From Candidatus Vogelbacteria bacterium (GTDB lineage: Bacteria; Patescibacteriota; Minisyncoccia; Phycocordibacterales; XYD1-FULL-46-19): a stretch of 64,000 bases of DNA. Below the pieces are notes generated by a model that was not told where the DNA came from, did no database searches, and saw only the letters and a list, made by a program, of their open reading frames with translations. The stretch covers positions 29,218 to 93,217 of the forward strand of contig CAIRHC010000002.1 of the NCBI GenBank assembly GCA_903878275.1. Reading direction: 5' to 3'. Positions 1 through 19,454 of the stretch are shown in pieces; within the stretch, counting starts at the first letter, position 1, and each line of letters starts with the position of its first letter. The translations under genes and the position numbers were made by a program.

Positions 1-2275
1 AATCGTTGTAAGCCAACTCAATTCCCTGCTCCGACAATCTTTTCGACAACTTATCAAGCAACAGTTTAGAAATTTGAAGCAAGTCTGATGAAGTCAACGG
101 ATTGAAAACCACCACCGCATCAAAACGGTTTAGGAGTTCAGGTTTGTAAATACCCTGATTGACAATCGCATCGATTATTTTGGTCGCTTCAGGTTTCTGA
201 CCTTCACGAACAGCTTGCCAAAGCATATCGGCACCAGCATTTGAAGTGGCGATAAAAATTAGATTGCGAACATTAACTTTCTTGCCACTCATATCCGAGA
301 AAAAACCTTCATCAAAAACCTGCAAGAAAAGATTTAAAATATCTTTGTTGCTTTTTTCAAATTCATCAAGCAACAAAACGCCGTACGGATGTTCGCGCAT
401 TAAGTTTGACAAAACTCCGGCTTGACTCTCACCAAAAGAACCGATCAACTTCGCCAACGCATCAGCTCCCTGATATTCAGACATATCGAGACGAAGCAAA
501 TCTTTTTCATTACCAAAGAAAACTTCCGCCAAAGCTTTTGAGGTTTCGGTCTTACCGACACCAGTGGGTCCCAAAAACAGGAAGGAGCCGATCGGACGTT
601 TTGGATTTCTAATACCAGTCCGAGAACGACGAATCGCATTACTGATTGCCTTAAGAGCTTCTTCTTGACCGACAACTCGTTTGTGAAGATTTTCTTCCAG
701 ACCAATAAGTTTTTCTTTTTCCTCTGGACTTATCTCTCCTAGCGGGATACTCGTCTTACCTTCGACAAACTCTTCAACTTCTTTTTTGCCAATCAAATAA
801 ATACCACGCGTCGCTGTCCAAGGAACAATTTCGGACAATAAATCAACCGCTTTATCGCCAGTATTACTTTCTGAAAAATAATACTCGGCATCGTGAGCTA
901 TCGCTAAAATAGCTGGATAAGTAAAAAATACGCTATTTCTTTTTTCCGACAACAAAACCGCTTCTTCCAAACTTCGAACAATCGATTCTTCTGGCATCGG
1001 TCGAATAAAAATGCGATCAAAGCGAGTCATTAGACCAGCGTTTGGTTCGATTTTTCGATGAAAAGTATCGCTATCAGCCAGACCAACGATCAGCAAAAGA
1101 TTGGCTGTCAAATAATGATCGACGAGACTTAAAAAATTGGAACCAAGATTTTCCAAACCTGAAAGTAATAATGGAAAATTATCAATAACCAACAAAATAT
1201 TGCCAGCCTTAGCGGCTTCATTGAGCATTTTTAGTAATTCTTGCTCCATTGCCGTGCGCTCTTTAAATTGAGCCAAAAAATTTCCCGTATTTAAAAGCAT
1301 CGGTCGGCGAAAGGCGACCGCCGGTGGTGCTTCTTTTTCTCGAATATTTCTGACCAAATGCCAGATGACATCCATCGCCTCCTGATTAGATTCGGCGACG
1401 ACCAGTGCGTTGGCTTCGCGATCTTTTGATAAAATCTCTTCAATTTGTGACAACTCTTCTTTACGAGAAGAAAAATCGTGATCAGCTGAACTTATTTGCG
1501 AACCAAAAAGTAGATCCCAGCAATATTTATCAAGAGTAAAAGTATTACCAAAACCCCAATCTTTCGCCAAGCCCGGAACTCGTTTGAGATTTTCCTCCCA
1601 CCACCAGCGCTTGCGATATTCAGCCGATTCAATACCGCGCACCACCCAATTGATCGCTCCGACAAGTTCGTCTTTTTTAATACCAAACCCATACAAAAAA
1701 TCTTTAAAATCTTTTTGTTCTTCATAAAGAGAAACGACTAATTCACGCAGTTTAAGCACTGTTTCATTAGACAGTGGCAATTGGTAATTCTGATCATTTT
1801 TATGATTTGCCAAAAACGTACCGATATCTGATTCGGTCACCCCGCAACGAGCCATAATTTCTAAGCCGAGCGAGGATCGAAGAAAGCCCGGCAAAATCTC
1901 ATCACCCTCGATCGACAATAAAATTCGGCCGACGGTAAAAGTAAAAAGATCACCCGGTTTATATTTATTTTGAGCGACATTATCAAAATAATAAGAAGAA
2001 TTAAAATAAGCCTCGATCATCTTGGAAACCAAATAGAAAGCCAGACTGATAAATAAAATCCCCCAAACTCTCGGCGCCAACAGTGCGACAAGGTTTTTAT
2101 CAACACCCGGAATAATATTAAAAGCCGTCACAATAGCGGTCAAAAATATAAATAAGCCTAGTAGCAAACCGCTAAATTTTAAAATCGCTTGGCGTTTTGA
2201 AGAAGAAACCCAAGACTCCAAAATGAGCACTGGGTAAAGCGGGCTCTCGTATAAAATTGTTTTAATATTACTCAT
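1..2275 (-). CDS. Clp/Hsp100-family AAA+ ATPase, partial (C-terminus runs off the left edge of the window). The N-terminus has two predicted TM helices and a degenerate first AAA module; the second AAA module is canonical.
   Basis: Reverse translation from ATG (rc of 2273-2275) gives MSNIKTILYESPLYPVLILESW... (the listed 77-aa ORF 1492..1725 is an internal in-frame piece of it). The D2 module carries NLHKRVVGQEEALKAISNAIRRSRTGIRNPKRPIGSFLFLGPTGVGKTE and the sensor motifs. The D1 region lacks a GxxGxGKT Walker A (ANALVVAESNQEAM). Confidence 0.7.
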   Translation of the reverse strand, partial: MSNIKTILYESPLYPVLILESWVSSSKRQAILKFSGLLLGLFIFLTAIVTAFNIIPGVDKNLVALLAPRVWGILFISLAFYLVSKMIEAYFNSSYYFDNVAQNKYKPGDLFTFTVGRILLSIEGDEILPGFLRSSLGLEIMARCGVTESDIGTFLANHKNDQNYQLPLSNETVLKLRELVVSLYEEQKDFKDFLYGFGIKKDELVGAINWVVRGIESAEYRKRWWWEENLKRVPGLAKDWGFGNTFTLDKYCWDLLFGSQISSADHDFSSRKEELSQIEEILSKDREANALVVAESNQEAMDVIWHLVRNIREKEAPPAVAFRRPMLLNTGNFLAQFKERTAMEQELLKMLNEAAKAGNILLVIDNFPLLLSGLENLGSNFLSLVDHYLTANLLLIVGLADSDTFHRKIEPNAGLMTRFDRIFIRPMPEESIVRSLEEAVLLSEKRNSVFFTYPAILAIAHDAEYYFSESNTGDKAVDLLSEIVPWTATRGIYLIGKKEVEEFVEGKTSIPLGEISPEEKEKLIGLEENLHKRVVGQEEALKAISNAIRRSRTGIRNPKRPIGSFLFLGPTGVGKTETSKALAEVFFGNEKDLLRLDMSEYQGADALAKLIGSFGESQAGVLSNLMREHPYGVLLLDEFEKSNKDILNLFLQVFDEGFFSDMSGKKVNVRNLIFIATSNAGADMLWQAVREGQKPEATKIIDAIVNQGIYKPELLNRFDAVVVFNPLTSSDLLQISKLLLDKLSKRLSEQGIELAYND

Positions 2276-2283
2276 AGATTAAA

Positions 2284-2682
2284 TTAGTAACCAAATATTA
2301 AAAGGGCGACACCAGCAATTAGCAAAAAGATAATAATAAAGGGCAGGGCCAACCAAAGAATCAACAAGACTGGATATAAAATGATCATCGACAACCAAGA
2401 AAACGCTCCGACAATAATAAGAATTGCCCGCATCAACATACCAACCAGACGCATCAGGAAATTTATCACGATCACCGAAGCCATCTCTTCAATTTTTAAA
2501 ACATCTTTCGGATAATCCTCACCAAGACGGCGCCACGGCGCAAAAAAAGATTTCAAAAGAACCGGAATCGAGAAAAAATTATAAACAAAATTTATTAAGC
2601 CTTTATAAATGGCATCGAATTCAGATAACGCCCGACCATAGTGCCAGGTCAAATAATTAAAAAAGATAAAGGTAAACCTCAT
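2284..2682 (-). CDS. hypothetical polytopic membrane protein
   Basis: 132-aa ORF, strongly hydrophobic, in an operon-like array with its neighbours. Confidence 0.4.
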   Translation of the reverse strand: MRFTFIFFNYLTWHYGRALSEFDAIYKGLINFVYNFFSIPVLLKSFFAPWRRLGEDYPKDVLKIEEMASVIVINFLMRLVGMLMRAILIIVGAFSWLSMIILYPVLLILWLALPFIIIFLLIAGVALLIFGY

Positions 2683-2714
2683 AACAATATTATACTACAA
2701 AATAAAAATAAACA

Positions 2715-3578
2715 TCAGATAAACCTGTAGAAAACTTTCTGTCCAAAGCGTAGATCGAGATATTCTAATTTTTGCTCTTTATTTTTCAGTTCGGTCAAAA
2801 AAGTTTCATTTTTAAGAATCGAAGTTAGGTTGTTAATCAAATCTTCGGTCTGGCGATCGGCATTAAACAAGATTTTAAAAAGAACACTAGAACCGCTACT
2901 AAATCCAATTTCAACAGAAAAATCACCGTCAGGCAAAACTTTTGTTTGTAAAATCTTAAGAGCCGTTTCGTCTTTTTGAAAACTTGGTAAAATATTTGTC
3001 AAAAAAATCAAAAAATTAGAGATATTCTCTATCCGGTCTGAAGTCAAAGCTTTCTGACCAATCTTATCGCCCAAATGATAACCAGCTAATTCAAAAATAA
3101 TATTCTCGGAAAAACTTGGTGCTTCCGAATATGTCCGCCCCGATTCATCCAAATAAAAACATTTTTTATCAGAAGCCATTCCTTCGCACCAGATAAGTTT
3201 TGGTTTTTTATCACTGACCGTAATTTTTAAAGCATTAAGCTCTGGTGCCATAATTTCAATATCAGCCAGTCGCGGAAAACTTTTTTTCAAATAATTTAGC
3301 ACTGATTTTTCTTGATAAAAAAACACGCTGTTTTTCGGGACAATAAAATAATAGCTACCAGTCAGCGCTTCGCCCGCTTTTTGTTCAATCAAACTTTTAT
3401 TTTCAAAAGTTGTACCCATCACGACAAATTTAGTCACGCGCAAAAAACTACAATTAATCAAAAACCAAAAAGCTCCGACAATCAAAAAAGCAATGACCAC
3501 GCCCAAAATATGCCGAGCGGTATTGATCTTTTTTTCGCGCTGTTTCGATTTTTTAAGAATTTCCGTCTTAGATGCCAC
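2715..3578 (-). CDS. FtsQ/DivIB-like cell-division protein (N-terminal TM anchor plus periplasmic POTRA-like domain)
   Basis: 287 aa with a single N-terminal TM segment (ILGVVIAFLIVGAFWFL) and FtsQ-like domain order. Homology is recalled, not searched. Confidence 0.45.
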   Translation of the reverse strand: MASKTEILKKSKQREKKINTARHILGVVIAFLIVGAFWFLINCSFLRVTKFVVMGTTFENKSLIEQKAGEALTGSYYFIVPKNSVFFYQEKSVLNYLKKSFPRLADIEIMAPELNALKITVSDKKPKLIWCEGMASDKKCFYLDESGRTYSEAPSFSENIIFELAGYHLGDKIGQKALTSDRIENISNFLIFLTNILPSFQKDETALKILQTKVLPDGDFSVEIGFSSGSSVLFKILFNADRQTEDLINNLTSILKNETFLTELKNKEQKLEYLDLRFGQKVFYRFI

Positions 3579-3608
3579 GACGAATTCTCGCTCGAAAGCG
3601 ATTAAATT

Positions 3609-4868
3609 TTATTTGATAATATCTTTGCCCAAATAAGGTCGCAAAACTTCCGGCACCAAAATACTACCATCAGCTTGCTGATAATTTTCTACTAAAGATA
3701 CAATCAAGCGTGGCGTCGCGGCTAGCGTCCCATTTAAAGAATGGACGAAACGCGTTTTACCATCAGTATCTTTGTATTTGGTGTTTAAGCGACGGGTTTG
3801 AAAATCGTGGAAATATGAGATCGAATGTGTCTCACGATATTTTCCTTCGGATGGCACCCAAGCTTCGATGTCATATTTTTTGACCTGACCTTGACCAAGA
3901 TCACCAGTACAATTTACCACCACATGATATGGAATTTTTAAATCTTGCATCAACTTTTCGGCATTAGCCAAAAGCACCTCGTGCCATTTGACACTTTCCT
4001 CGTGACTGGCTTCACACAACACCACTTGCTCCACTTTGTAAAATTCATGCAAGCGAATTAACCCACGAGTATCTTTACCATGGCTACCCGCTTCACGCCG
4101 ATAACACGGCGAAAAAGAAACAAATTTTAACGGCAGATGTTCTTTGGGAATGACCTCATCCATATAAAAACCCATTGTCGGCACTTCGGCGGTGCCAGCC
4201 AAAAAATCTCCATCTTGAGTTTTATAAAGATCATCCTCGCCTTGCGGTAAATAACCAGTCCCCATAAAAGTTTCCGGATGATTAACAATCGGTACGAGCA
4301 TTGGAGTGAAGCCATCTTTGACCATCAAGCTCAAGGCGTGTTGCCAAATTGCAAAAGACAGTTGCACTGCTTCGTTCTTCAAAAAATAACCACGAAAACC
4401 AGCGACTTTCACCCCGCGCTCAAAATCAACCAATTTCAAATTAGTAAATAATTCTAATTGACTTTTTGGCGTAAAACTAAATTTCGGTTTATCGCCCCAG
4501 ACTTTTACTTCTTGATTTTCAGAATCATCTTTGCCTTCAGGTACCGACATATCCGGAATATTTGGCACTTGAAGCATTAGGAGTTGCCATTTTTTCATTA
4601 CTTCCTTTAATTCTTCTTCTTTTTTCTGAAGTTCGTCTTTGACGACTTTCATTTCTTCAATCAAGCTATCTCGCCCACTGGCATCGGCTTTCATAATCGC
4701 GTCACTCGCCACATTTTGTTTGGCGCGCAAAGAATCCGTTTCGCCGACCAATTTCAGACGCTCGTCATCCGCCGTAATTAATTCATCAATATTAAAAGCT
4801 GATAATTTTTTCCGCGCTGCCTCTTTAATAAGCTCCTTGTTTTCTTTTATAAATTTAATGTCTAACAT
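3609..4868 (-). CDS. serS: seryl-tRNA synthetase
   Basis: MLDIKFIKEN... with class II aaRS motifs (FRGYFLKNEAV, CYRREAGSHGKDTRGLIRLHEF, TLAATPRL). The start is moved to the internal ATG at 4866-4868 that gives the canonical SerS N-terminus. Confidence 0.9.
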   Translation of the reverse strand: MLDIKFIKENKELIKEAARKKLSAFNIDELITADDERLKLVGETDSLRAKQNVASDAIMKADASGRDSLIEEMKVVKDELQKKEEELKEVMKKWQLLMLQVPNIPDMSVPEGKDDSENQEVKVWGDKPKFSFTPKSQLELFTNLKLVDFERGVKVAGFRGYFLKNEAVQLSFAIWQHALSLMVKDGFTPMLVPIVNHPETFMGTGYLPQGEDDLYKTQDGDFLAGTAEVPTMGFYMDEVIPKEHLPLKFVSFSPCYRREAGSHGKDTRGLIRLHEFYKVEQVVLCEASHEESVKWHEVLLANAEKLMQDLKIPYHVVVNCTGDLGQGQVKKYDIEAWVPSEGKYRETHSISYFHDFQTRRLNTKYKDTDGKTRFVHSLNGTLAATPRLIVSLVENYQQADGSILVPEVLRPYLGKDIIK

Positions 4869-4959
4869 ATACCCAAATCTTAGCAAAAACCGCCCAAAAA
4901 AACAAAAGTTGGTTAGGCACAATTTAATCTCACCGATTTGTTTGATACAATAATATAGA

Positions 4960-5829
4960 ATGTATCAAATCGAAAAAATTACGCCGAAAAAATTCCCGCC
5001 GGCTTTGCTGGAAATCCCCCAGTCGCCGAAAGAACTTTTTGTTGCTGGCAAAATACCAGATCCGGAAAAATATATTTTTCTGACTATTGTTGGCTCACGG
5101 CATTATTCTGCTTACGGTCGTGAAGTTTGTGAAAAAATAGTTTCCGGTCTGGCTGGTCAGCCGATCATGATCGTTTCCGGTTTGGCTTTAGGTATTGATA
5201 CGATTGCTCACCAAAGTGCCCTCGAAGCTGGTCTAATCACTGTCGCTTTTCCCGGATCAGGACTTAACCAAAAAGTGCTTTATCCATCTGCCAATCGTCG
5301 CCTCGCCGAAAAAATTATTGAAAATGGGGGAGCTTTAGTTTCTGAATATCAGCCCGACCAAATTGCCACGCTTTATACTTTTCCGCAAAGAAATCGCTTG
5401 ATGGCGGGTTTGTCTCGCGCCACCTTAATAATCGAAGCTGGACAAAAATCTGGTACGCTCATCACCGCTCGCCTCGCCACCGAATACAATCGCGATGTCC
5501 TAGCTATCCCCGGCTCCGTTTTTTCGCCAAATTCTTACGGTCCAAATTGGCTGATCAAACAAGGCGCCACGCCAATCACCGAAGCCGAAGATATTTTAAA
5601 ACATTTTAGTTTAAAACAAGAAAGCTTTGATTTTGATTCCGCCGAAAAACTGGCGGACTTATCCCCGATTGAGAAAAAAATTGTTGAGCTCTTAAGGATC
5701 GAACCGCTCCCGCGAGACGAACTAGTTTTTAAAGCTAAAGTTTCCGCGAGCGAAGCCAACACCGTTTTATCAATAATGGAAATTAAAGGTTTAATTAAAG
5801 AATCTTTAGGTGAGTTTCATTTAAACTAA
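4960..5829 (+). CDS. dprA: DNA processing protein DprA/Smf
   Basis: GSRHYSAYGREV...IVSGLALGIDTIAHQSALEAG...AGQKSGTLITARLA...IPGSVFSPNS, the typical DprA Rossmann-like domain. Confidence 0.85.
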   Translation: MYQIEKITPKKFPPALLEIPQSPKELFVAGKIPDPEKYIFLTIVGSRHYSAYGREVCEKIVSGLAGQPIMIVSGLALGIDTIAHQSALEAGLITVAFPGSGLNQKVLYPSANRRLAEKIIENGGALVSEYQPDQIATLYTFPQRNRLMAGLSRATLIIEAGQKSGTLITARLATEYNRDVLAIPGSVFSPNSYGPNWLIKQGATPITEAEDILKHFSLKQESFDFDSAEKLADLSPIEKKIVELLRIEPLPRDELVFKAKVSASEANTVLSIMEIKGLIKESLGEFHLN

Positions 5830-5842
5830 TTTTTTATCCCCA

Positions 5843-5878
5843 TTTGACATAATTCTATATTTATAATATAATTTGCAC
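5843..5878 (+). promoter_or_regulatory. near-consensus sigma70-type promoter (TTGACA, 17-nt spacer, TATAAT) upstream of the gene at 5953
   Basis: ttgacataattctatatttataatataat read directly. It is followed by an 11-bp stem hairpin (atatttccttg...caaggaaatat, about 5889-5929) in the 5' UTR. Confidence 0.5.
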
Positions 5879-5952
5879 AGATTAGATATTTTCCTTGATT
5901 TGGGCGTTCCGAACAAGGAAATATTTTTGTTCTTAATGTACGGAGGGAAAAA

Positions 5953-6255
5953 ATGACACACAAGCGACACGCCTATGAAATGTTGGTTGAGGAAATCGAA
6001 GAGACTGTTGTGGCTCTAAATTTTCTCGACAAGGCTAATATCAGCCATTTCGACAGGACGAGGATGACCTGCGAGTTAACTATTATGTTAAAAGTTATTT
6101 CGCAGATTATCATTCCAAGAGAAAATATCGACGAGGTAATCTCTCGGTTGTCCGAAATCAAAGAAAAAACTGGTAATCCCAATACCAAAAATCTTTTTTC
6201 GGAGAAGCTTTACAAAGAAGTCAGCAAAATCAACCCCCCCCCCAGCCGGAAGTAG
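5953..6255 (+). CDS. hypothetical protein (100 aa)
   Basis: ORF with an RBS (ggaggg) and a strong upstream promoter, followed by a terminator. Confidence 0.4.
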   Translation: MTHKRHAYEMLVEEIEETVVALNFLDKANISHFDRTRMTCELTIMLKVISQIIIPRENIDEVISRLSEIKEKTGNPNTKNLFSEKLYKEVSKINPPPSRK

Positions 6256-6284
6256 GTAGCCGATTCGTCCAGCTCAATCCAAGA

Positions 6285-6312
6285 CCCCGCAGACACCAGC
6301 GGGGTTTTTCTT
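6285..6312 (+). terminator. rho-independent terminator
   Basis: ccccgc-agacacca-gcgggg followed by tttttctttt. Confidence 0.6.
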
Positions 6313-6453
6313 TTGTTTAAATTAATAATTTTCCAAACAAAAAAAATAATCCCCAGTTTGACAAACAGTTACAAAAAGAATAATACTTGCTAAACTGTTT
6401 GAGATGTTAAAAAATTAAAAAGGAAAATTATAAATTTTAAATTACCAATTAAA

Positions 6454-8631
6454 GTGAAGTTACTTATTGTCGAGTCACCAGCCAAAGCCAAGACCATCTC
6501 AAAATATTTAGATGGCGCCTACACTGTCAAAGCCAGTGTTGGGCATATTCGTGATTTACCAAAATCAAATAAAAATGCGATTGATATTGAAAATGATTTT
6601 TTGCCACGCTATGAAATTTCTCCCGGCAAAGAAAAAGTGGTCGCCGAATTAAAAATTTTAGCTAAAAAAGCGAGTGAGGTTTTACTCGCGACTGACCCCG
6701 ACCGCGAAGGCGAAGCGATTGCTTGGCACATAAAAGAAGCGCTTGGTTTAAAAAAACCAGAACGCATTGTTTTTCACGAGATCACTGAAGAAGCGGTCAA
6801 AGAAGCAATGAAGCATCCTCGGCAGATTGATAACAATTTGCGTTATGCTCAAGAAGCCCGTCGAGTTCTCGATCGCCTTTTTGGTTATGATTTATCTGGC
6901 TTGATCTGGCAAAAAGTCCGTTATGGTCTATCTGCTGGTCGGGTCCAATCCCCGGCTTTGCGAATCATCGTGGAAAAAGAAAAAGAAATTCGCGCTTTTA
7001 TTCCAGAAAATTATTGGACAATCTCGGCAATTTTTGAAGATCAAAAGAAAAATAAGATTCCTTTTACTTGTAGTATCGAACCGAAGACCGAAGACGAGGC
7101 AAATAAAATTGTCGCCGATAGTCAAAAAACTGACTGGCAAGTCGAAAAAGTAGAAGAAACCAAAGCGGCTCGCAAAGCCCGCGCGCCATTTACCACTTCG
7201 ACATTACAACAAACCGCTTCGTCACGTTTTGGTTATGCGCCAAGTATTACGATGCGTCTGGCTCAAAAACTTTACGAAGCCGGACACATCACTTATATGC
7301 GTACTGATAGTACAAATTTAAGCACGGTGGCAGTGGAAGAAATTTCTAAAGTTGTAGCCAAAAAATACGGCGATAATTATTTTGTCGCCCAACAATATAA
7401 AACTAAAAGTAAAAATGCTCAAGAAGCCCATGAAGCCATCCGCCCCAGCCACGCCAGTGTTTTTTCTGCCGGCACTTCACCTCAAGAAAGAAAACTTTAT
7501 GAATTGATTTGGCAACGCACAGTCGCCAGCCAGATGGCTGATGCCGAAGTCTTGCGCACAAAGATTACGGCTGTCGCCGACAAAAAAGATATTCCGGTTT
7601 TTGAAACCAGCGGTTCACGCGTTTTATTTGATGGCTGGCTCAAAGCTGATCCCGACGCTCGCGGCGAGGATGTTGATTTACCAAAATTAAGCGCTGGTGA
7701 TAAATTAAACTTGCTTGAAATTGAAAGCCTCGACAAACAAACCGAGCCACCTCATCGCTATACCGAGGCAGGCCTCGTTAAAGAATTAGAAAAACGAGGT
7801 ATCGGTCGCCCAAGTACTTACGCAGCGATTATTAAAACAATTCAAGACCGCGGTTATGTTGTGAAAGAAAATAAATCTCTCCAGCCCACCGACACCGGCG
7901 AAGTCGTCAGTGATTTTTTAAGCGAATATTTTGCTCATTATATTAGCGACACTTTCACCGCCGAAATGGAAGATGAGCTTGATGATATTGCCGACGGCAA
8001 ACGCGGTTATGCTAAAACTTTAAAAGATTTTTACGGACCATTCACCAAAGAAATAAAAAGTAAAAAGAAAATTGAAAAAATTACTAATCTTGGCGATGCT
8101 CCAAAAAATATTAAGTGTCCAGAATGTGGCGGTCCGATGATTATCAAACTTGCCAAAAATGGTAAGTTTTATAGTTGCGCCAAATTCCCCGACTGCACCG
8201 GCGCTCTCACGATGGATGGCGAAAAATTGGAAGGTCCAAAGCCGACCGGCGAAAGTTGCCCAGACTGTAACAGCCCGCTCGTCGAGCGTGACGGACGTTT
8301 TGGTCGTTTCGTCGCCTGTTCCAATTATCCAAAATGCAAATATATTAAAAAAGACGCGATCATCGAAGGTCAAGAAAAACGCGGTGATACTGGTGTCGAA
8401 TGTCCTCTCTGCAAAGCCGGCACAATGACCGAGAAAAAAGGACGCTTTGGTGTTTTTTATGGTTGTTCTAATTATCCGAAATGCAAAAATATCATAAAAT
8501 CAAAACCAACTGGCGCGCTTTGCCCAGACTGCGGGTCTTTAATGATGGAGGGAACGAAAACAATCCCAGAGAGATGTAGTAATAAACTGTGCGAGAATAA
8601 CAGACCAGATAAAAAAGGGAAAATAAAATAG
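6454..8631 (+). CDS. topA: DNA topoisomerase I with a C-terminal array of C4 zinc ribbons
   Basis: TOPRIM N-terminus (LLIVESPAKAKTISKYLG), the catalytic region, and repeated CxxC...CxxC zinc-ribbon modules. GTG start, TAG stop. Confidence 0.9.
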   Translation: MKLLIVESPAKAKTISKYLDGAYTVKASVGHIRDLPKSNKNAIDIENDFLPRYEISPGKEKVVAELKILAKKASEVLLATDPDREGEAIAWHIKEALGLKKPERIVFHEITEEAVKEAMKHPRQIDNNLRYAQEARRVLDRLFGYDLSGLIWQKVRYGLSAGRVQSPALRIIVEKEKEIRAFIPENYWTISAIFEDQKKNKIPFTCSIEPKTEDEANKIVADSQKTDWQVEKVEETKAARKARAPFTTSTLQQTASSRFGYAPSITMRLAQKLYEAGHITYMRTDSTNLSTVAVEEISKVVAKKYGDNYFVAQQYKTKSKNAQEAHEAIRPSHASVFSAGTSPQERKLYELIWQRTVASQMADAEVLRTKITAVADKKDIPVFETSGSRVLFDGWLKADPDARGEDVDLPKLSAGDKLNLLEIESLDKQTEPPHRYTEAGLVKELEKRGIGRPSTYAAIIKTIQDRGYVVKENKSLQPTDTGEVVSDFLSEYFAHYISDTFTAEMEDELDDIADGKRGYAKTLKDFYGPFTKEIKSKKKIEKITNLGDAPKNIKCPECGGPMIIKLAKNGKFYSCAKFPDCTGALTMDGEKLEGPKPTGESCPDCNSPLVERDGRFGRFVACSNYPKCKYIKKDAIIEGQEKRGDTGVECPLCKAGTMTEKKGRFGVFYGCSNYPKCKNIIKSKPTGALCPDCGSLMMEGTKTIPERCSNKLCENNRPDKKGKIK

Positions 8632-10522: not shown

Positions 10523-11506
10523 TTATAGTGAAAAATTTTTAATAAAATAAAGATTTTCGTCTTCGTCTACTTTTTCGGGCTGGTTAAAACCAAGTCGTTC
10601 CGCTTCGGCAAAACTTTCTGGCAAAGCCGGCCTGTCTTCTTCTGGCACCAAACCGGTAATTTCTAAAATCGAATTGGCTTCATTCTTATACATCATCTCC
10701 AAAATTTTTCGCAAATCTTCGATGGAAGCATAGTCGATCGAAATCCGTCCACCCTTGTCTCTTTTTTCCACCTTAACTCGGTTGCCATATTTTTCGGTCA
10801 GCTTTTCCTCCATTTCAATAATGTCTGGCTCCACCATTGATTCTTTTCGACGGACTTTGTCATAAGCAATTCGCCGAGCAATTGCTTCGACTTCGCGCAC
10901 GGTCAAACGCTTTAGTAAGGTTTCTTTAAAAATTGTCGATTGTTCTTCGGGCCGATCGCCAAGCATCAAAAGTGGTCGGGTGTGACCTTCACTAATTTGA
11001 CCGGTTGTCAAAGCGTCCAAAATTTCTTGCGGCAAATTCATAATGCGAATAGTATTGGAAACAAACTCGCGACTTCGCCCAATTCTTTTGGCAACATCAG
11101 AATGAGTCAAATCAAATTCTTTAACCAAGCGACAAAAAGCTTGAGCCCGATCGACAGGATTCAAATCTTCACGTTGAAGATTTTCGATAATCGCCAACTC
11201 GAGCTTCATCTTGTCGGTTTGTTCGCCACTACGAATTATCGCCGGCACCTGATACAGACCAGCCAGTTTAGACGCTCGCCAGCGTCGTTCGCCCGCGATA
11301 ATTTCGTATTCGCTAAAAAAACTGCCATCCTCGCGTTCAATTTCTTTGCGTGTCACCACGAGTGGTTGCAACACACCATATTGTTTAATCGAATCAGCCA
11401 GATCACGCAAACGATCCTCGTTAAATTCATTGCGAGGCTGAAAAGGATTGGGTTTGATTTTCTCAACCTCAATCAAAAATATTTTATCTTCAAATTCATT
11501 AGCCAT
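10523..11506 (-). CDS. parB: ParB/Spo0J-family partition protein
   Basis: ParB N-terminal box (KIKPNPFQPRNEFNEDRLRDLADSIKQYGVLQPLVV, IIAGERRWRASKLAG) followed by an HTH. Confidence 0.8.
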   Translation of the reverse strand: MANEFEDKIFLIEVEKIKPNPFQPRNEFNEDRLRDLADSIKQYGVLQPLVVTRKEIEREDGSFFSEYEIIAGERRWRASKLAGLYQVPAIIRSGEQTDKMKLELAIIENLQREDLNPVDRAQAFCRLVKEFDLTHSDVAKRIGRSREFVSNTIRIMNLPQEILDALTTGQISEGHTRPLLMLGDRPEEQSTIFKETLLKRLTVREVEAIARRIAYDKVRRKESMVEPDIIEMEEKLTEKYGNRVKVEKRDKGGRISIDYASIEDLRKILEMMYKNEANSILEITGLVPEEDRPALPESFAEAERLGFNQPEKVDEDENLYFIKNFSL

Positions 11507-11507
11507 A

Positions 11508-11592
11508 TGGTGCCGAAGGAGAGAATCGAACTCTCACATCTTGCGATACACGATTTTGAGTCGTGCGCGTCTACCAATTCCGCCACTTCGGC
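11508..11592 (-). tRNA. tRNA-Leu (anticodon CAA), long variable arm
   Basis: rc reads GCCGAAGTGGCGGAATTGGTAGACGCGCACGACTCAAAATCGTG...GTTCGATTCTCTCCTTCGGCACCA. The anticodon loop is CTCAAAA. Confidence 0.8.
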
Positions 11593-11827
11593 AAAAACAA
11601 AAGATAGGACTTTTGTCTTATCTTATATTCTACTAAAAATTAAAACAAAATCAAACCTGTTTTGCTAATGGTTTATCGTAAAAAACTTCTTACCAAACGA
11701 CACCTTAATATTACAACGACCACTTGACACTACTATTTAGATATGATAGTATTTTAACAGACGCAATACCTTTACCTAGGACATTGACTTAAAAACGCTA
11801 GCTATCTAGCACAGAAAAGAAGCAACT

Positions 11828-13958: not shown

Positions 13959-14471
13959 CTAATTATTTTTGTAGATCGCAATAATCTGTCTAATAATTAA
14001 TTCGTCAGGTTTAATCGTCTCTCCAGTAAAATCAAACCAGACTTTTAGAAAATCCTTTCTTTTAATTTTTCTTTCGCCACCAATTTCAGGATCTTGTAGA
14101 TAGATATACTCATCATCGAGGCCACCTACAACTGAATAATGACCGTCGGCAACTTCTGAATCATCATAATCTTGTCGGCCACGGGTAAACCAGTCGACAA
14201 TAACCGGAACACCTTTCTCTAGCCATTTCTCAATATCTTCAAAACTGCTTTCGTTTTTTATTTCAGCTTTGAATCCTAACGATTCCGCTACTCTTACAAT
14301 ATCTTTATCGTTAATACCCAGCTCTGGATCTAAACCAGCCAGATCGGCCAGTTCTTTTTCTGTCTTCTCAACTCCGTAATAATCGAGAACAATTTTCAGT
14401 GAAGCTGGCCCGCACATTCCAGCGTGTAGGGTTTCTTGAAAATATTTTGTGTTTAATAATATTTTATTCAT
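13959..14471 (-). CDS. stand-alone C39-like (papain-fold) peptidase, a candidate leader peptidase
   Basis: The catalytic Cys sits in MCGPASLKIVLDYYG, the His in ADGHYSVVGG and the Asp in YLQDPE. Its start overlaps the stop of the upstream gene by 8 nt. Confidence 0.65.
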   Translation of the reverse strand: MNKILLNTKYFQETLHAGMCGPASLKIVLDYYGVEKTEKELADLAGLDPELGINDKDIVRVAESLGFKAEIKNESSFEDIEKWLEKGVPVIVDWFTRGRQDYDDSEVADGHYSVVGGLDDEYIYLQDPEIGGERKIKRKDFLKVWFDFTGETIKPDELIIRQIIAIYKNN

Positions 14472-15183
14472 AGAATTTTAAACTTTCTTTTATAAAGTTT
14501 TTTATATCACCATTGTTTTGGTCCCAAAGATTTTGGATTTTAACTAGTTTTTCTTTTAATCCAGGATAAAATAATTGCTCTGGTCTTCTTATTATCGCTT
14601 GAAGTTGTGGCAAGTTTAAAATAATAACATTAAAAATCTCGGATAATTCCCAAAGTGGACCATTGTTTTTACTTAAGTCTTTTGTCTCTTCAATAAACTG
14701 ACCACAATAATCAAAAAAGGCGAAGTGAAGAGATTCGTGAAAAGCTACCTCGGCCTTACCCAATAAGTCTTTTTTATAAAAAACCTGAAAGGTCTGGTCC
14801 TCAATATATCGTGGATTACAATTAAAAATTGAGAGGTAGCCAGTGTACTCTTTCCCCAAAAAATCTAAGCTGAAAATCTTTCTTAATTCGGCAAAAAATA
14901 ATTGTTGATTTTGATTAAGATAATCGTTTATTTCCTGAATATTTTTCTCTAACAAATCGTTATTCGTTAAGTAAAAATTATCAATATACTGTTGGTAATT
15001 ATTCCCGTCTATTTCCGGATGGTCCTTTTTTATCTTTTCGCTAAAATCAATACCGGCAACTTTAAAATCCTTAAAATCATTAAAGACTTCGTAGTCCAGT
15101 TCTTTATTTAATCTTATTGTAATCATTGTTAAATAATAGAACCCCCGAGCCATTAAGGCAAGGGGGTTCAAGGTCTTCAACAA
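14464..15183 (-). CDS. hypothetical protein (239 aa) between the rSAM gene and the C39 peptidase gene
   Basis: ORF that is translationally coupled to both neighbours. Confidence 0.4.
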   Translation of the reverse strand: MLKTLNPLALMARGFYYLTMITIRLNKELDYEVFNDFKDFKVAGIDFSEKIKKDHPEIDGNNYQQYIDNFYLTNNDLLEKNIQEINDYLNQNQQLFFAELRKIFSLDFLGKEYTGYLSIFNCNPRYIEDQTFQVFYKKDLLGKAEVAFHESLHFAFFDYCGQFIEETKDLSKNNGPLWELSEIFNVIILNLPQLQAIIRRPEQLFYPGLKEKLVKIQNLWDQNNGDIKNFIKESLKFYE

Positions 15184-15185
15184 GT

Positions 15186-16604
15186 CTAGAGTCTGTCAAA
15201 CAGGTCCCAGACCAGCCATTCGAGAGTCTTGAGAGAATGCACGCAGAAGCGGTCATCGATAGACCAGATACTTCCGTTTCTTAGCCAAGCTCCATAGGCG
15301 CATCCTCCGCCACAGATACCGATTGCTGGGCAGTCGAAGCACTGGGGCATGTTTAAGGGTGTTCGTTGTTTCCAGTCTTGAACCAGGGGCTCATCGTGAA
15401 AACGAAAATCCTTGGAGACTTGGCCAAAGAAGAAACACTTGGCCCCAATGCCTTCGTGACAGAGTCCAAGCCGACCATCTGGCGAACAAACGATTTGCGC
15501 GCCTGTTGCTTGACAATCGGCTACATGAATCGTTTTGCCGATGAAGGCTTTGACCTTACGCATGATTCGATCTTCGTAGATACCCGCCTCTCTCGCCAGA
15601 ATGAAATACTCGAGCATTCGACGAGACACCTTTGTCATGTACCGGTGGCTGATTCGTCTTTCGCTGGTGTCCAAAAGCGGATTGAGGTTTATTGCCGAGA
15701 CACCACAGTCTTGGCCGACAGCAATAAGTTCGGGCAGTCGATCGATGTTGTGTTGGTCAATAGTGCAAGAGAACGAAAGATCCTTGCGACCACTGATTTT
15801 ACTCAACAGTTCGAATCCTCTCTCGACTTGATCGAAAGACCCGTTGCCATCAACCGTAATTCTCATCTGGTCGTGAACCATTGCTGGCCCGTCAAGAGAG
15901 ATCCCGATGTTGATATCCTTATGCTCGCCAAAGAATTGCGCCATCTCCTCATTGATGACCGTCCCATTCGTCACAATCGAGAACCGAAATCCCGTGCCAA
16001 GTTCTTTAAGCTCCGCACGATATTTCTCTTTGGTATATTCGATGACTCGCTTAACGATCGGGAAATTCAACAATGGCTCGCCACCGTAGAATATAATCGT
16101 CTTAACGAAATCATCGAACTCTGGAGGATTTCTCGAGATGTTAGAGAAGAACATGTCGATCGCTTCTCTGGCTGTTTCCCAGCTCATGGAAGAGCAGGGG
16201 TAATCGCTTGGCATGTTGTTGTTGATGAAGCAGTAACGGCAACGCAAATTACAAATATCCGTTACTAACAAATACATTGTCTCAAGACCGACAGGAAGCA
16301 CATACTTCTCGCGTTTACGGTCCAGCAGGTCTTGATCGTTTTGCCTCGTCTCAACAACTATTCCGGTTTGGCACAGCTCGTCAATAACTGACAGAACTTC
16401 CTCAGCTGGCACACCAGCAAGACCGTGGGTGATTTTTTCCCTCGTCGCCCCAACTCGAAGCATCGCTACCAACTTCTTGAACTTGTTCTCAAGAAAGAGG
16501 GTCTCGATATTAAGAGAATGATAAACGGCGAAGAAATCGACACCTTTTTTCTTGATGATGTGTGCCCACCGAGACAACCTTAGGGCGTTTTCGCCGTGTT
16601 GCAT
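15186..16604 (-). CDS. radical SAM enzyme with a C-terminal SPASM/twitch domain and a roughly 110-aa N-terminal extension that could be an RRE; a candidate RiPP maturase
   Basis: The CxxxCxxC motif is in TDICNLRCRYCF. The C-terminus has a Cys cluster (CQATGAQIVCSPDG...CFDCPAIGICGGGCAYGAW). GC content is clearly higher than in neighbouring genes. Confidence 0.85.
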   Translation of the reverse strand: MQHGENALRLSRWAHIIKKKGVDFFAVYHSLNIETLFLENKFKKLVAMLRVGATREKITHGLAGVPAEEVLSVIDELCQTGIVVETRQNDQDLLDRKREKYVLPVGLETMYLLVTDICNLRCRYCFINNNMPSDYPCSSMSWETAREAIDMFFSNISRNPPEFDDFVKTIIFYGGEPLLNFPIVKRVIEYTKEKYRAELKELGTGFRFSIVTNGTVINEEMAQFFGEHKDINIGISLDGPAMVHDQMRITVDGNGSFDQVERGFELLSKISGRKDLSFSCTIDQHNIDRLPELIAVGQDCGVSAINLNPLLDTSERRISHRYMTKVSRRMLEYFILAREAGIYEDRIMRKVKAFIGKTIHVADCQATGAQIVCSPDGRLGLCHEGIGAKCFFFGQVSKDFRFHDEPLVQDWKQRTPLNMPQCFDCPAIGICGGGCAYGAWLRNGSIWSIDDRFCVHSLKTLEWLVWDLFDRL

Positions 16605-16671
16605 CTGATTTCTCCTTACCTTAGTTTTGTGGCGGGCCAGGACTAGCCCGACCCGCCACGACTCGCCCTTA

Positions 16672-16791
16672 CTTACTCCTTAATCTTGGGAGCATTGCAA
16701 GAACAACCGCAGGCGCAGACACTGACTGACGCCCTGGCCATGTCGATATTGCCGACAATGGCTTGAAGTTGCGACCGATTGGCCTTCTTCA
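16672..16791 (-). CDS. unannotated 39-aa Cys-rich precursor peptide (MKKANRSQLQAIVGNIDMARASVSVCACGCSCNAPKIKE)
   Basis: ATG at rc 16789-16791 with a consensus SD (AAAGGAGAAA) 6 nt upstream and a TAA stop. It lies 68 nt upstream of the rSAM gene on the same strand. It is absent from the ORF track because it is under 60 aa. Confidence 0.6.
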
Positions 16792-16896
16792 TAGCTTTCT
16801 CCTTTCTAGATCTCAATGATCGGATCCAAAATAACCATACCACGAATATCTAAAGTATTCAAGTGGTCAAAAGAACCAACTTTTATAGATATATTT

Positions 16897-17280
16897 TTAT
16901 CTCCGATCAAAATAATCTTGCACCTTAGCCGCTAGAGCCATCGGGGCTAACTCAGTTTTTCCCCAAAATTCAGTTGCTCCAAGAGCTAGAAACTTTCGCT
17001 TTACTTCTTTTTTATCAAGATTAGTGAAAACAATAACTGGTATATCTTTAGTGGTCGGATCAGCCTTTAATTGCTTTAAAACTTCTTCACCGTCAACACC
17101 CTCCATTACGATATCTAAAACGATAACTTTAGGATGCCAACTCTTGGCTTGCTCAACCCCAATCTTGCCACCATTAGCCATCACGCTAGGAATACCGGCG
17201 ACATCAAAAGCTACTTTGTAAAGATACATTTGATCAGAATCATCCTCAATCATTAAGACTTGTTTTATTTCTTCGGCCAT
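16897..17280 (-). CDS. single-domain response regulator (CheY-like receiver with no output domain)
   Basis: MIEDDSDQ...VLDIVMEGVDGEEVLKQLK...PVIVFTNLD, 127 aa. Confidence 0.8.
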   Translation of the reverse strand: MAEEIKQVLMIEDDSDQMYLYKVAFDVAGIPSVMANGGKIGVEQAKSWHPKVIVLDIVMEGVDGEEVLKQLKADPTTKDIPVIVFTNLDKKEVKRKFLALGATEFWGKTELAPMALAAKVQDYFDRR

Positions 17281-17285
17281 AATAT

Positions 17286-19454
17286 TTATTTTTTAGTTTT
17301 TGGAATAGTAACGATAAATTCAGTGCCTTTACCTTCCTCACTAATGAAAGTAATCGTGCCACCCGGATGAGCCTGAATAACTTCTCTTGTGATAAAAAGA
17401 CCTAAGCCAGAACCATCAGTGTACATATCTACCGCGTTAGTCGCTCGTTCAAACTTACCAAACATCCGCGCTTGATCGTCTTTTGGAATACCGACGCCAG
17501 TATCTTTAACCTTAATGATAATACTTTGAGGATTTTCGTCCAGTAGCATCTCAACCTTACCTTCCTTAGTATATTTAAGAGCATTATCAACCAAATTAAA
17601 GAGAGCTTGTTCAAGATAATCGGGATCAGACTTGATTTGAGGATTGGCTGGATTGGGAATAAAGACTAGTTGTAGCTTCTTTTCATTAGCAAAATTTTGA
17701 CTATCAGCAATCACATCAGCCAACACCTTGTTAAGGTCGACTAGCACGATTCTTTTCTCGACAAAACTAAATTTTTCGGTATCAAATTCAGAGGCTTGGA
17801 GAATATCTCTAATTATCTGGCTAATCTTTAATGATTTTTGATAGATATTATCAATCAAATGATTTTGAGTTTCCTGTGGGACATTCTTTAATGACCCTTC
17901 TCTAAACATTGAGATGGTACCAAAGATAACCGAGATTGGTGTTTTTAATTGATGTGAGGCAATATCTAAAAATTCTGATCTCATCGCCAATAATTTCTTT
18001 AAGTGTTCAGCTTGTTCTTCCAATACTTTCGTTTTATCTTGCAAAGTCATCGTTTGATCATTTACTTTTTGTTTGAGTGTTTTATTAAAATCTTTAACCT
18101 CTTTATACAATTCGGCATTATCAATCGCAATCGCGGCTTGATTTGAAAGCGTCATCAACAATTCTAAATCTTCGACCGTAAATGGGTCGCCAAAAAGTCT
18201 CGGCCCTAAAGCAATCGAACCAATTAATTTTTTGTTATTAACCAATGGTAAACAAACGGAAATATCCATTTTCTTCATTTGCTCAACAATCAGCAAAAGA
18301 TCCTCTGGCTTTTCTTTCAACCGTTCATCAGAAGAAAATAAAGACAGCTCTTCAAGCACAACGGGTCGCTGAGTTTTTTCTAAATATTTAATTAAAGAAT
18401 CTTTTGTTCTGGCTCTCGGATTAAGCATTGTCACTTCAACTTTTTTAATCCCCATAATGTCTTGAATCGTTTTAGTGATCAGGTCAGTAATTTCAACCAA
18501 GTCAGTATGATAAGTTAATTGACCAGCGAGACGACTAATGGTTTCTTGAAAATTGTAGAGGCCGGAAAAGAGGTATTTATTAGCAAAAATTTTCATACCC
18601 TTGTCGACACGATAAAAACCAAAAGCAAAGAGTGGAGCAATTGCTAGACCGATAATCAAGGCTCCGTTGGCAAAAACACCACCAAAAAATTCGTTATAAA
18701 ACCAAGTAAGGAGATAAAAAATCGCATAAGCAAAAAAGGCTACACCGAAATAAACAAAAATTCGGCGGACAACAATTCTAACATCCAAGAGTCGGTAACG
18801 GATAATGGCGTAAACAGTGAATAAAACGTAGGTCGAAGCAAATAAATTACCATAAGGTTTAATTGGGATGTTATACCAAAGAAAGTAATTAGTTGAACCG
18901 CCGACAAGACTAATCGCGATACCTAAAAGAAGATATTTAATCTGGGCTCTTTTAATCGCCGAGGTTTCAGTTTTTAAAGCACGAAATGACAAATAGGCCG
19001 AGTAGGCAGACACTCCAACGAACATCATCAAAAATGGGGCATATGCTATGCCCGGTTTAGGCCAAAAAATAAAACCGGCCAATGGCTCAACGTGATCCAC
19101 CATTAACGGAGTTAATAGTAGCAGGGAAAAAACGACAGACAGAAGATAATTAAGATTTAAAAACTTCTTATATCTCTCTTCAATATTCAAAAAGACCAAA
19201 ACCACTTTTAGATAGGCAACCGGAATCCAAACGGCCCCAAGCATCAATACTCTAGTCCAAAATAAAGCTAAGTCGCTATTACTTTGTTCTGTTTGCCAAA
19301 GAAAATAAAAGAAGCTCCAAAAAGCGACAGAGGCACACCAAAAAGCTAATGATTTATTTAAACGAGCTTTGGGATTTTTGTATAAAACAAAAAAGCCCAG
19401 TAGTAATCCGATCGAAAAATTAATAAGAGCAGTAATTGAGTAATAACTCCACAT
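17286..19454 (-). CDS. sensor histidine kinase (about 8 N-terminal TM helices, then GAF, HisKA and HATPase_c)
   Basis: Hydrophobic N-terminal 290 aa; the H-box is ASHQLKTPISVI; the C-terminal part carries the HATPase_c G-boxes (DTGVGIP...GSGLGL). Confidence 0.8.
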   Translation of the reverse strand: MWSYYSITALINFSIGLLLGFFVLYKNPKARLNKSLAFWCASVAFWSFFYFLWQTEQSNSDLALFWTRVLMLGAVWIPVAYLKVVLVFLNIEERYKKFLNLNYLLSVVFSLLLLTPLMVDHVEPLAGFIFWPKPGIAYAPFLMMFVGVSAYSAYLSFRALKTETSAIKRAQIKYLLLGIAISLVGGSTNYFLWYNIPIKPYGNLFASTYVLFTVYAIIRYRLLDVRIVVRRIFVYFGVAFFAYAIFYLLTWFYNEFFGGVFANGALIIGLAIAPLFAFGFYRVDKGMKIFANKYLFSGLYNFQETISRLAGQLTYHTDLVEITDLITKTIQDIMGIKKVEVTMLNPRARTKDSLIKYLEKTQRPVVLEELSLFSSDERLKEKPEDLLLIVEQMKKMDISVCLPLVNNKKLIGSIALGPRLFGDPFTVEDLELLMTLSNQAAIAIDNAELYKEVKDFNKTLKQKVNDQTMTLQDKTKVLEEQAEHLKKLLAMRSEFLDIASHQLKTPISVIFGTISMFREGSLKNVPQETQNHLIDNIYQKSLKISQIIRDILQASEFDTEKFSFVEKRIVLVDLNKVLADVIADSQNFANEKKLQLVFIPNPANPQIKSDPDYLEQALFNLVDNALKYTKEGKVEMLLDENPQSIIIKVKDTGVGIPKDDQARMFGKFERATNAVDMYTDGSGLGLFITREVIQAHPGGTITFISEEGKGTEFIVTIPKTKK

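Follow-up and report, generated by a model that had tools for sequence, protein, structure and literature searches.

A short cysteine-rich ORF overlooked by annotation is the probable precursor gene of a compact RiPP cassette in Patescibacteria

The window, by which we mean the whole 64,000-nt stretch of DNA analysed here, carries on its minus strand a short open reading frame (ORF) that translates as MKKANRSQLQAIVGNIDMARASVSVCACGCSCNAPKIKE and lies 68 nt from the ATG (16604) of a gene for a radical SAM (rSAM) peptide maturase (Table 1). The initial annotation had placed this ORF at 16672-16791, one nucleotide too low. The ORF itself is real, the peptide translation given there is identical to ours, and the Shine-Dalgarno sequence was correctly recognised, with GGAG 6 nt before the ATG. 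Of the two intergenic distances it gave, the 68 nt to the rSAM gene were found again, but the stop of the response-regulator gene (16897) is separated from the precursor ATG by 104 nt rather than 106. It also described the ORF as missed by the ORF track, which holds for the protein collection considered below but not for the mechanical ORF list, where the 39-aa frame is present in extended form as a 56-aa ORF initiated at GTG (16673-16843). We take about the first 15 residues, MKKANRSQLQAIVGN, as the leader and IDMARASVSV-CACGCSC as the core, followed by a clade-specific tail, NAPKIKE; an example of a predicted core is IDMARASVSVCACGCSCNAPKIKE. A search for further precursor copies across the window found none, so that this is the single such ORF, and comparison of the peptide with Pfam and NCBIfam returned no family even at E <= 10, TIGR04135 (45-bit cutoff) likewise going undetected at that threshold. 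No convincing promoter was seen in a sigma-70/terminator scan of the 104-nt gap, and a known regulatory RNA was rejected because the region 16400-17100, compared with Rfam at E <= 1, gave no match.

Table 1. Features of the locus, in window coordinates
Feature	Position	Strand	Remarks
p218, 218 aa	13282-13938	minus	end of apparent operon
Stand-alone C39-family cysteine peptidase, 170 aa	13959-14471	minus	Peptidase_C39 / C39_2
p239, HExxH zincin-fold protein, unclassified	14464-15153	minus	annotated 229 aa
rSAM/SPASM peptide maturase, 472 aa	15186-16604	minus	RRE-like wHTH, CX3CX2C, 7-Cys SPASM
GC-rich stem-loop, 13 bp	16629-16659	minus	arms GUGGCGGGUCGGG / CCUGGCCCGCCAC, 5-nt loop
Precursor peptide gene	16673-16792	minus	39 codons + TAA; ATG 16792-16790, TAA 16675-16673
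Shine-Dalgarno AAAGGAG	16799-16805	minus	GGAG at 16802-16799
Receiver-only response regulator	16897-17280	minus	directly upstream of precursor
7TM-GAF histidine kinase	17286-19454	minus	upstream of response regulator
Class-I SAM methyltransferase, 367 aa	19571-20674	minus	upstream of kinase

Among 15 billion predicted proteins in one collection are the products of the rSAM gene, the 229-aa HExxH protein gene and the C39, p218, response-regulator and histidine kinase genes, each from this 101,830-bp NCBI/ENA contig, but the precursor product is missing in both its 39-aa and its 56-aa form; the precursor gene was therefore truly overlooked by annotation. Such omission is the rule for the family as a whole. 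A profile of the peptide family, with a 40-aa member as its first sequence, found only 6 annotated relatives among 5.8 billion proteins, and gene callers thus almost always miss these peptides across the tiny-genome Patescibacteria (CPR). One annotated member (P0249), MKKPTTKQLKSMLRKIDLVKVSASVCSCGCSCSRKQLVDKKEQKV, has a 13-residue basic tail and an Arg at the otherwise invariant Gly14, so that this glycine is not an absolute requirement. A literature search (FibroRumin, ranthipeptide + Patescibacteria, CPR + SPASM + precursor) turned up no account of the peptide family.

Loci were fetched from genome and metagenome collections and regarded as orthologous at 45-77% enzyme identity. Wherever the sequence of an orthologous locus extends upstream of the enzyme gene, as it does in about 20 cases (L001-L006, L008, L010-L016, L052, L061-L069), a homologous small ORF is located on the same strand 46-120 nt 5' of the rSAM gene, and an SD-like core precedes the start by 4-10 nt in 12 of 19 family members. 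The family consensus is MKK.T..QL.AVAGKI......AS.CACGCSC; M1, G14, I16 and C26-x-C28-G29-C30-S31-C32 are invariant and K2 nearly so in a 16-sequence alignment, and the 9 residues from I16 to the first Cys are variable across the family. In most members the last Cys is also the final residue of the peptide or the one before it, and short tails are found in the clade of the window, those of the closest relatives being NAPKVAME and HVPKVAMR. At the nucleotide level the non-majority fraction at codon positions 1, 2 and 3 is 0.24, 0.24 and 0.47, third positions having twice the variation of first and second positions, and the mean pairwise pS is 0.76 against a pN of 0.35. The invariant residues are themselves written in different codons, with GGC, GGT, GGG and GGA at Gly29, TCG, TCC, TCT and TCA at Ser31, and both TGC and TGT at each invariant Cys; Ala27 uses all four GCN codons. 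Because of this synonymous variation at invariant residues and the excess of pS over pN, the codon pattern fits a translated peptide under purifying selection and not a conserved RNA. The initial annotation had proposed weighing conservation of the ORF against that of the intergenic sequence, and it is indeed the ORF that is conserved; the intergenic nucleotides are not, and only a hairpin structure is retained among them.

The protein encoded by the rSAM gene downstream has all the domains expected of a SPASM maturase that depends on a leader. Its invariant cysteines are C118, C122 and C125 (the CX3CX2C motif) together with C364, C382, C422, C425, C431, C435 and C454. Among NCBIfam models it scores highest with TIGR04136 (FibroRumin, 272.4 bits), followed by PapB (169), SCIFF (148) and then QhpD, and it is below the curated cutoff in every named family. 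The closest solved structures by sequence are CteB (5WGG, E 1.6e-34) and then TigE (8VPO). An AlphaFold (AF2) model of the maturase has a pLDDT of 92.3, and its top Foldseek match, over the full length, is again CteB, with TM scores of 0.75/0.80. The N-terminus of the model forms beta-strands at residues 8-39 and helices at residues 40-79, a winged helix-turn-helix (wHTH) that is predicted to be a RiPP recognition element (RRE), which CteB also carries (PMC10878394). In the model, the enzyme has the architecture of this thioether synthase, in which an RRE and an rSAM domain are joined to a SPASM domain with 7 Cys. The maturase has more than 2,400 relatives, with over 100 clusters at 40% identity or above, and of the closest ~120 (39-77% identity) the overwhelming majority belong to metagenome bins of Patescibacteria/CPR (Paceibacterota, Taylor-, Morani-, Staskawicz- and Giovannonibacteria). 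For the partner proteins, comparison with PHROGs and PADLOC was uninformative, the matches to viperin reflecting the generic rSAM core.

In most orthologous loci the rSAM gene is followed directly by the gene for p239, which also adjoins many of the distant enzyme relatives in Patescibacteria; its start, to judge from the homologues, may be the ATG at 15126 rather than the annotated one. All 285 homologues of p239 are labelled hypothetical; the protein has no Pfam or NCBIfam match, its profile gave no meaningful match against PDB sequences, and by sequence it is not a member of the alpha-KG HExxH hydroxylases (ChlH, BpmH, PflC; IPR026337). H139-E140-x-x-H143 and S171-E172 are invariant. A gluzincin metallopeptidase would combine such an HExxH motif with a Glu ligand further downstream on a zincin fold. 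Since an HExxH protein of a RiPP cluster may hydroxylate its substrate or cleave it oxidatively instead of hydrolysing it (PMC12636437), we hold the reading of p239 as a leader peptidase to be unproven; as a candidate for that role it has roughly even odds, and we consider this likelier than an HExxH tailoring enzyme. Of the homologues whose surroundings were inspected, the two closest (74% and 66% identity) stand alone, neither an rSAM gene nor a Cys-rich ORF occurring within 4.7-7 kb of them, and the family and role of p239 are therefore not exclusive to the cassette. About 2 kb from one stand-alone homologue, 66% identical to the protein in the window, there is a 97-aa fragment (L147, 7366-7659) matching the ATP-grasp MvdD family of RiPP ligases, of the graspetide/microviridin type.

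The base composition of the cassette is uneven. In the window, GC content is 52% for the peptide gene, 48% for the rSAM gene (GC3 0.56) and 30% for the HExxH gene (GC3 0.30), and in 9 of 9 other loci checked (L001, L002, L004, L008, L011, L013, L015, L062, L064) the HExxH gene lies 7-16 GC points under the adjacent rSAM gene. This drop may reflect modular acquisition of peptide and rSAM genes beside a resident gene, or tuning of expression. In the closest relatives of the cassette, the rSAM of which is 77% identical, an integrase/transposase of the rve family is situated on the opposite strand directly 3' of the HExxH gene (L062, 3142-4080; L063, 3320-4258), which hints that the cassette is mobile.

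As tblastn of the C39 peptidase, p218, the response regulator, the histidine kinase and the methyltransferase against the other orthologous loci found no homologue, all five were rejected as conserved cluster members and are not features of the family. The start of the C39 gene overlaps the stop of p239 by 8 nt; its best NCBIfam matches are bacteriocin-ABC peptidase domains, the catalytic Cys and His motifs are readable in the sequence, and the protein is a genome-specific accessory that may serve as a second leader peptidase. No Pfam, NCBIfam, PHROGs or PADLOC match was obtained for p218. The methyltransferase gene constitutes a second high-GC island (~51%, against 36% in the kinase), and its start codon is probably different from that of the ORF given here, since the exact product of this ORF is absent from the protein collection. 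One full-length homologue of the kinase (25% identity) was found, in the distant locus L017, where the rSAM is 38% identical. Positions 2001-7347 of that locus hold a class-I methyltransferase, a 7TM-GAF kinase, a 189-aa protein, the peptide MKIIIPTKADLEKVGGKVALTQNSVGGCGCTSCECR and the rSAM, with no HExxH gene, and it is the only locus to repeat the kinase context of the window; its 189-aa protein has a G-T-C-W motif and no Pfam match and is possibly a papain/transglutaminase-like protease. We consider these five genes to be local additions, which hint at a regulated or signalling use in this genome without establishing it; the kinase and regulator genes beside the precursor may form a local regulatory link. 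Seven tRNA genes occur in the window, and that for tRNA-Leu(CAA), on the minus strand at 11508-11592, accounts for the spurious overlapping ORFs around 11450-11640.

We regard it as very probable that the ORF is translated and that its peptide is modified by the maturase next to it, and as highly likely that the ORF represents the precursor (A) gene in a compact RiPP cassette, conserved in Patescibacteria, of precursor, RRE-rSAM-SPASM maturase and HExxH protein. The initial annotation had already named the ORF a precursor, an identification now strongly supported by co-occurrence with the enzyme in all orthologous loci, by purifying selection, by homology of its leader to those of the FibroRumin type and by the likeness of the maturase to CteB. 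In the pathway that we propose, the leader, about residues 1-15 with the G14-x-I16 motif, would dock on the RRE of the maturase, and the rSAM domain would abstract hydrogen atoms and join the four thiols of CxCGCSC to peptide carbons in thioethers of the sactionine/ranthionine type. The leader would then be removed near G-[N/K/Q]-I by the HExxH protein, with the extra C39 peptidase contributing in this genome, and the hairpin behind the stop codon would let precursor mRNA exceed enzyme mRNA.

Homology to CteB, PapB and FibroRumin suggests that the four Cys become cross-linked through thioethers, and we put the chances for and against this modification as level. As the stretch from I16 to C26 is variable and offers no conserved acceptor side chain, the sequences favour acceptors at backbone C-alpha positions, or within the cluster, over a specific side chain; and as the peptide ends at the last Cys in most homologues, the acceptor should be N-terminal to the Cys or between them. 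Well-studied sactipeptides and ranthipeptides have an acceptor layout that is the reverse of this one. Cleavage would probably take place at the invariant G14-x-I16. The initial annotation had pointed to two sites, of which the IVG-N-I region is conserved, with G14 and I16 invariant, and 'ARA' is not. At the junction V-G-N-I the residue after the invariant G is N, K or Q, and a C39 gene is found in the window and in no other locus; C39 double-glycine sites have GG, GA or GS at -2/-1, against which the G-N junction of the window is non-canonical.

No exporter or immunity gene was found in the conserved cassette, which leaves room for an intracellular role in cofactor formation or metal binding; the product may equally be a signal, an antimicrobial or an agent of metal/thiol chemistry. 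On one broader reading, the product is a Patescibacteria-wide RiPP but not a classical secreted bacteriocin: it would be either (a) an intracellular cofactor or metal-binder, rich in thiols or thioethers and made by the minimal three-gene cassette, or (b) a signal sensed by the adjacent 7TM-GAF kinase, with the HExxH partner carrying out new, possibly non-hydrolytic chemistry on CxCGCSC. We think this rather unlikely. A rival proposal, in which the peptide gives rise to a thiol-rich cofactor or metal-binding molecule that stays inside the cell and whose CxCxCxC is the metal- or redox-active part, is improbable in our view. Its attraction lies in analogues such as PQQ and mycofactocin, which combine an rSAM-SPASM enzyme with a peptidase and have no exporter, and the copper-chelating bufferins; in the C-x-C repeat, which resembles metallothionein-type motifs; and in the cassette proteins, in which no obvious membrane segments can be read from the sequences. 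Cys-containing RiPPs that chelate metals are also known (PMC12452194). Nevertheless, the nearest characterised relatives of the enzyme form thioether cross-links, which consume thiols, no gene for metal homeostasis or a redox enzyme is linked to the cassette, and the want of a transporter gene in it carries less weight given that exporter genes are often located elsewhere.

The hairpin between the precursor and rSAM genes bears on a further proposal. In the window it begins 13 nt past the precursor stop, has a perfect stem with a folding energy of -27.6 kcal/mol (z -2.35) and is followed by ACAAAAC, and each of the 18 loci examined has a strong hairpin in this position, the z values ranging from -2.0 to -6.7 and the sequences being unrelated. 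Four Cys codons in seven, followed by a strong hairpin before an Fe-S enzyme gene, superficially recall the trp and his leaders, and a Cys-rich leader peptide could be imagined as an attenuator that senses the charging of Cys-tRNA and controls the rSAM gene. This attenuator model was rejected, and we consider it highly improbable. The window hairpin lacks a U-tract behind it, as do those of many other loci, though T-runs follow some; the terminator scan did not class the window hairpin as a canonical terminator; and when the Cys-codon region was folded together with the hairpin in 8 loci, no recurrent alternative or antiterminator pairing appeared, the hairpin being independent of the Cys codons. 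In addition, the N-terminal half of the peptide is conserved at the protein level and homologous to the leaders of a curated RiPP family, and the precursors of genuine FibroRumin relatives, which are two in tandem or 107 aa long, are incompatible with such a mechanism. In many RiPP operons, including those of lantibiotics and sactipeptides, an intercistronic stabiliser or partial terminator raises precursor mRNA over enzyme mRNA, and by analogy the hairpin probably sets the ratio of precursor to enzyme transcript, either by stabilising the mRNA or by terminating part of the transcription. It is scarcely credible that the true product is the 56-aa ORF, the longer frame of which is open but whose 17-residue extension is not conserved while the family begins with M-K-K/T at an ATG that the Shine-Dalgarno sequence precedes, or that the frame is open by chance, which the codon substitution pattern excludes.

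Returning to the reading of the ORF as the precursor gene of a three-gene RiPP cassette, the type of system is one already known, with a precursor, an RRE-rSAM-SPASM maturase and a protease-like partner. New here is a CPR-specific branch that lies below the thresholds of all curated families and whose precursor is essentially never annotated. Surveys have reported few or no biosynthetic gene clusters in CPR/Patescibacteria (e.g. PMC11613949, PMC12153355), and this cassette is nonetheless kept in many lineages with small genomes. Including the M-K-K...G-[NK]-I...C-x-C-G-C-S-C family in models for annotation and RiPP mining would make a hidden natural-product family recoverable. The specialist in RiPPs will find the system unsurprising; for CPR genome annotation it is a useful correction, and it offers a clean, experimentally tractable minimal system, with a core of 18-24 residues as substrate, both for SPASM maturases of an uncharacterised branch and for HExxH enzymes of an unclassified family.

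Among known systems, FibroRumin (TIGR04135 + TIGR04136) is the best-scoring curated family for the enzyme of the window. The two have in common a precursor directly 5' of an RRE-rSAM-SPASM enzyme and a short leader with a hydrophobic-G-[N/K]-I motif ~10 residues before a Cys-rich core. The window enzyme, at 272.4 bits, is nevertheless below the TIGR04136 cutoff of 400 bits, genuine members scoring 403-799; its substrate has the minimal core CxCGCSC where that of FibroRumin has 7-8 Cys and an acidic D-W-E tail; and FibroRumin loci of gut and rumen are without the HExxH partner that the Patescibacteria branches have. Cys-rich ORFs are likewise found upstream of the more distant enzyme relatives (30-40% identity), and common to all of these peptides is a motif, hydrophobic-G-[N/K]-[I/V/L/T], that precedes the first Cys by ~10 residues. 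The distant relatives include a human-gut locus (L083, 32% identity) that is genuine FibroRumin, its enzyme scoring 799 bits and each of its two tandem peptides reaching 64 bits on TIGR04135, and a Paceibacterota locus (L020) just at the TIGR04136 threshold (403 bits). The precursors of gut and rumen FibroRumin loci (L083, 685-1009; L082, L102; L022/L024) are either two different tandem peptides or a single one of 107 aa with two Cys-rich modules, and many end in an acidic tail of the D-W-E type. In an hhalign comparison the leader of the window family aligns with FibroRumin-type leaders with a probability of 89% and an E of 2e-6, G-[KN]-I being in register. On this alignment the leaders are homologous at the superfamily level, and the window system is therefore a divergent CPR-specific sister branch of the FibroRumin family. 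The library of literature searched contains no paper on FibroRumin; the family is defined only bioinformatically.

The other relatives are further removed. In SCIFF/thermocellin (CteA-CteB), a ranthipeptide system, CteB is the closest solved structure by both sequence and fold, and the precursor, like that of the window, is small and Cys-rich and has a Gly motif at the end of its short leader. The window enzyme, however, reaches 148 bits against a TIGR03974 cutoff of 425, the SCIFF precursor (TIGR03973) has six Cys in ~45 aa where the window peptide has four in 39 aa, no conserved acceptor of the Thr/Asp type follows the window Cys, and the phylum differs. Freyrasin (PapA/PapB) and the classical sactipeptides subtilosin (AlbA) and thurincin H likewise depend on rSAM/SPASM enzymes that form Cys-to-carbon thioethers on a leader-bearing precursor, and PapB is the second NCBIfam match of the window enzyme (169 bits, below the cutoff of 340), but CX3D repeats are absent from the window peptide. 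The donor Cys of sactipeptides are N-terminal with i+3 spacing, whereas the Cys cluster of the window is C-terminal with i+2 spacing. The cyclopropylglycine synthases TigE/TvgB (8VPO), the second-closest solved structure, have the same RRE-rSAM-SPASM layout and are defined by a strictly conserved GYW motif that is a ligand of Aux I (PMC10878394); this motif is nowhere in the 472 aa of the window enzyme, and the repeated Val/Ile motifs of their substrates are absent from the window peptide. What the window shares with the sactipeptide/ranthipeptide class at large is a co-conserved, co-oriented and adjacent precursor gene and an enzyme that unites CX3CX2C with a 7-Cys SPASM domain.
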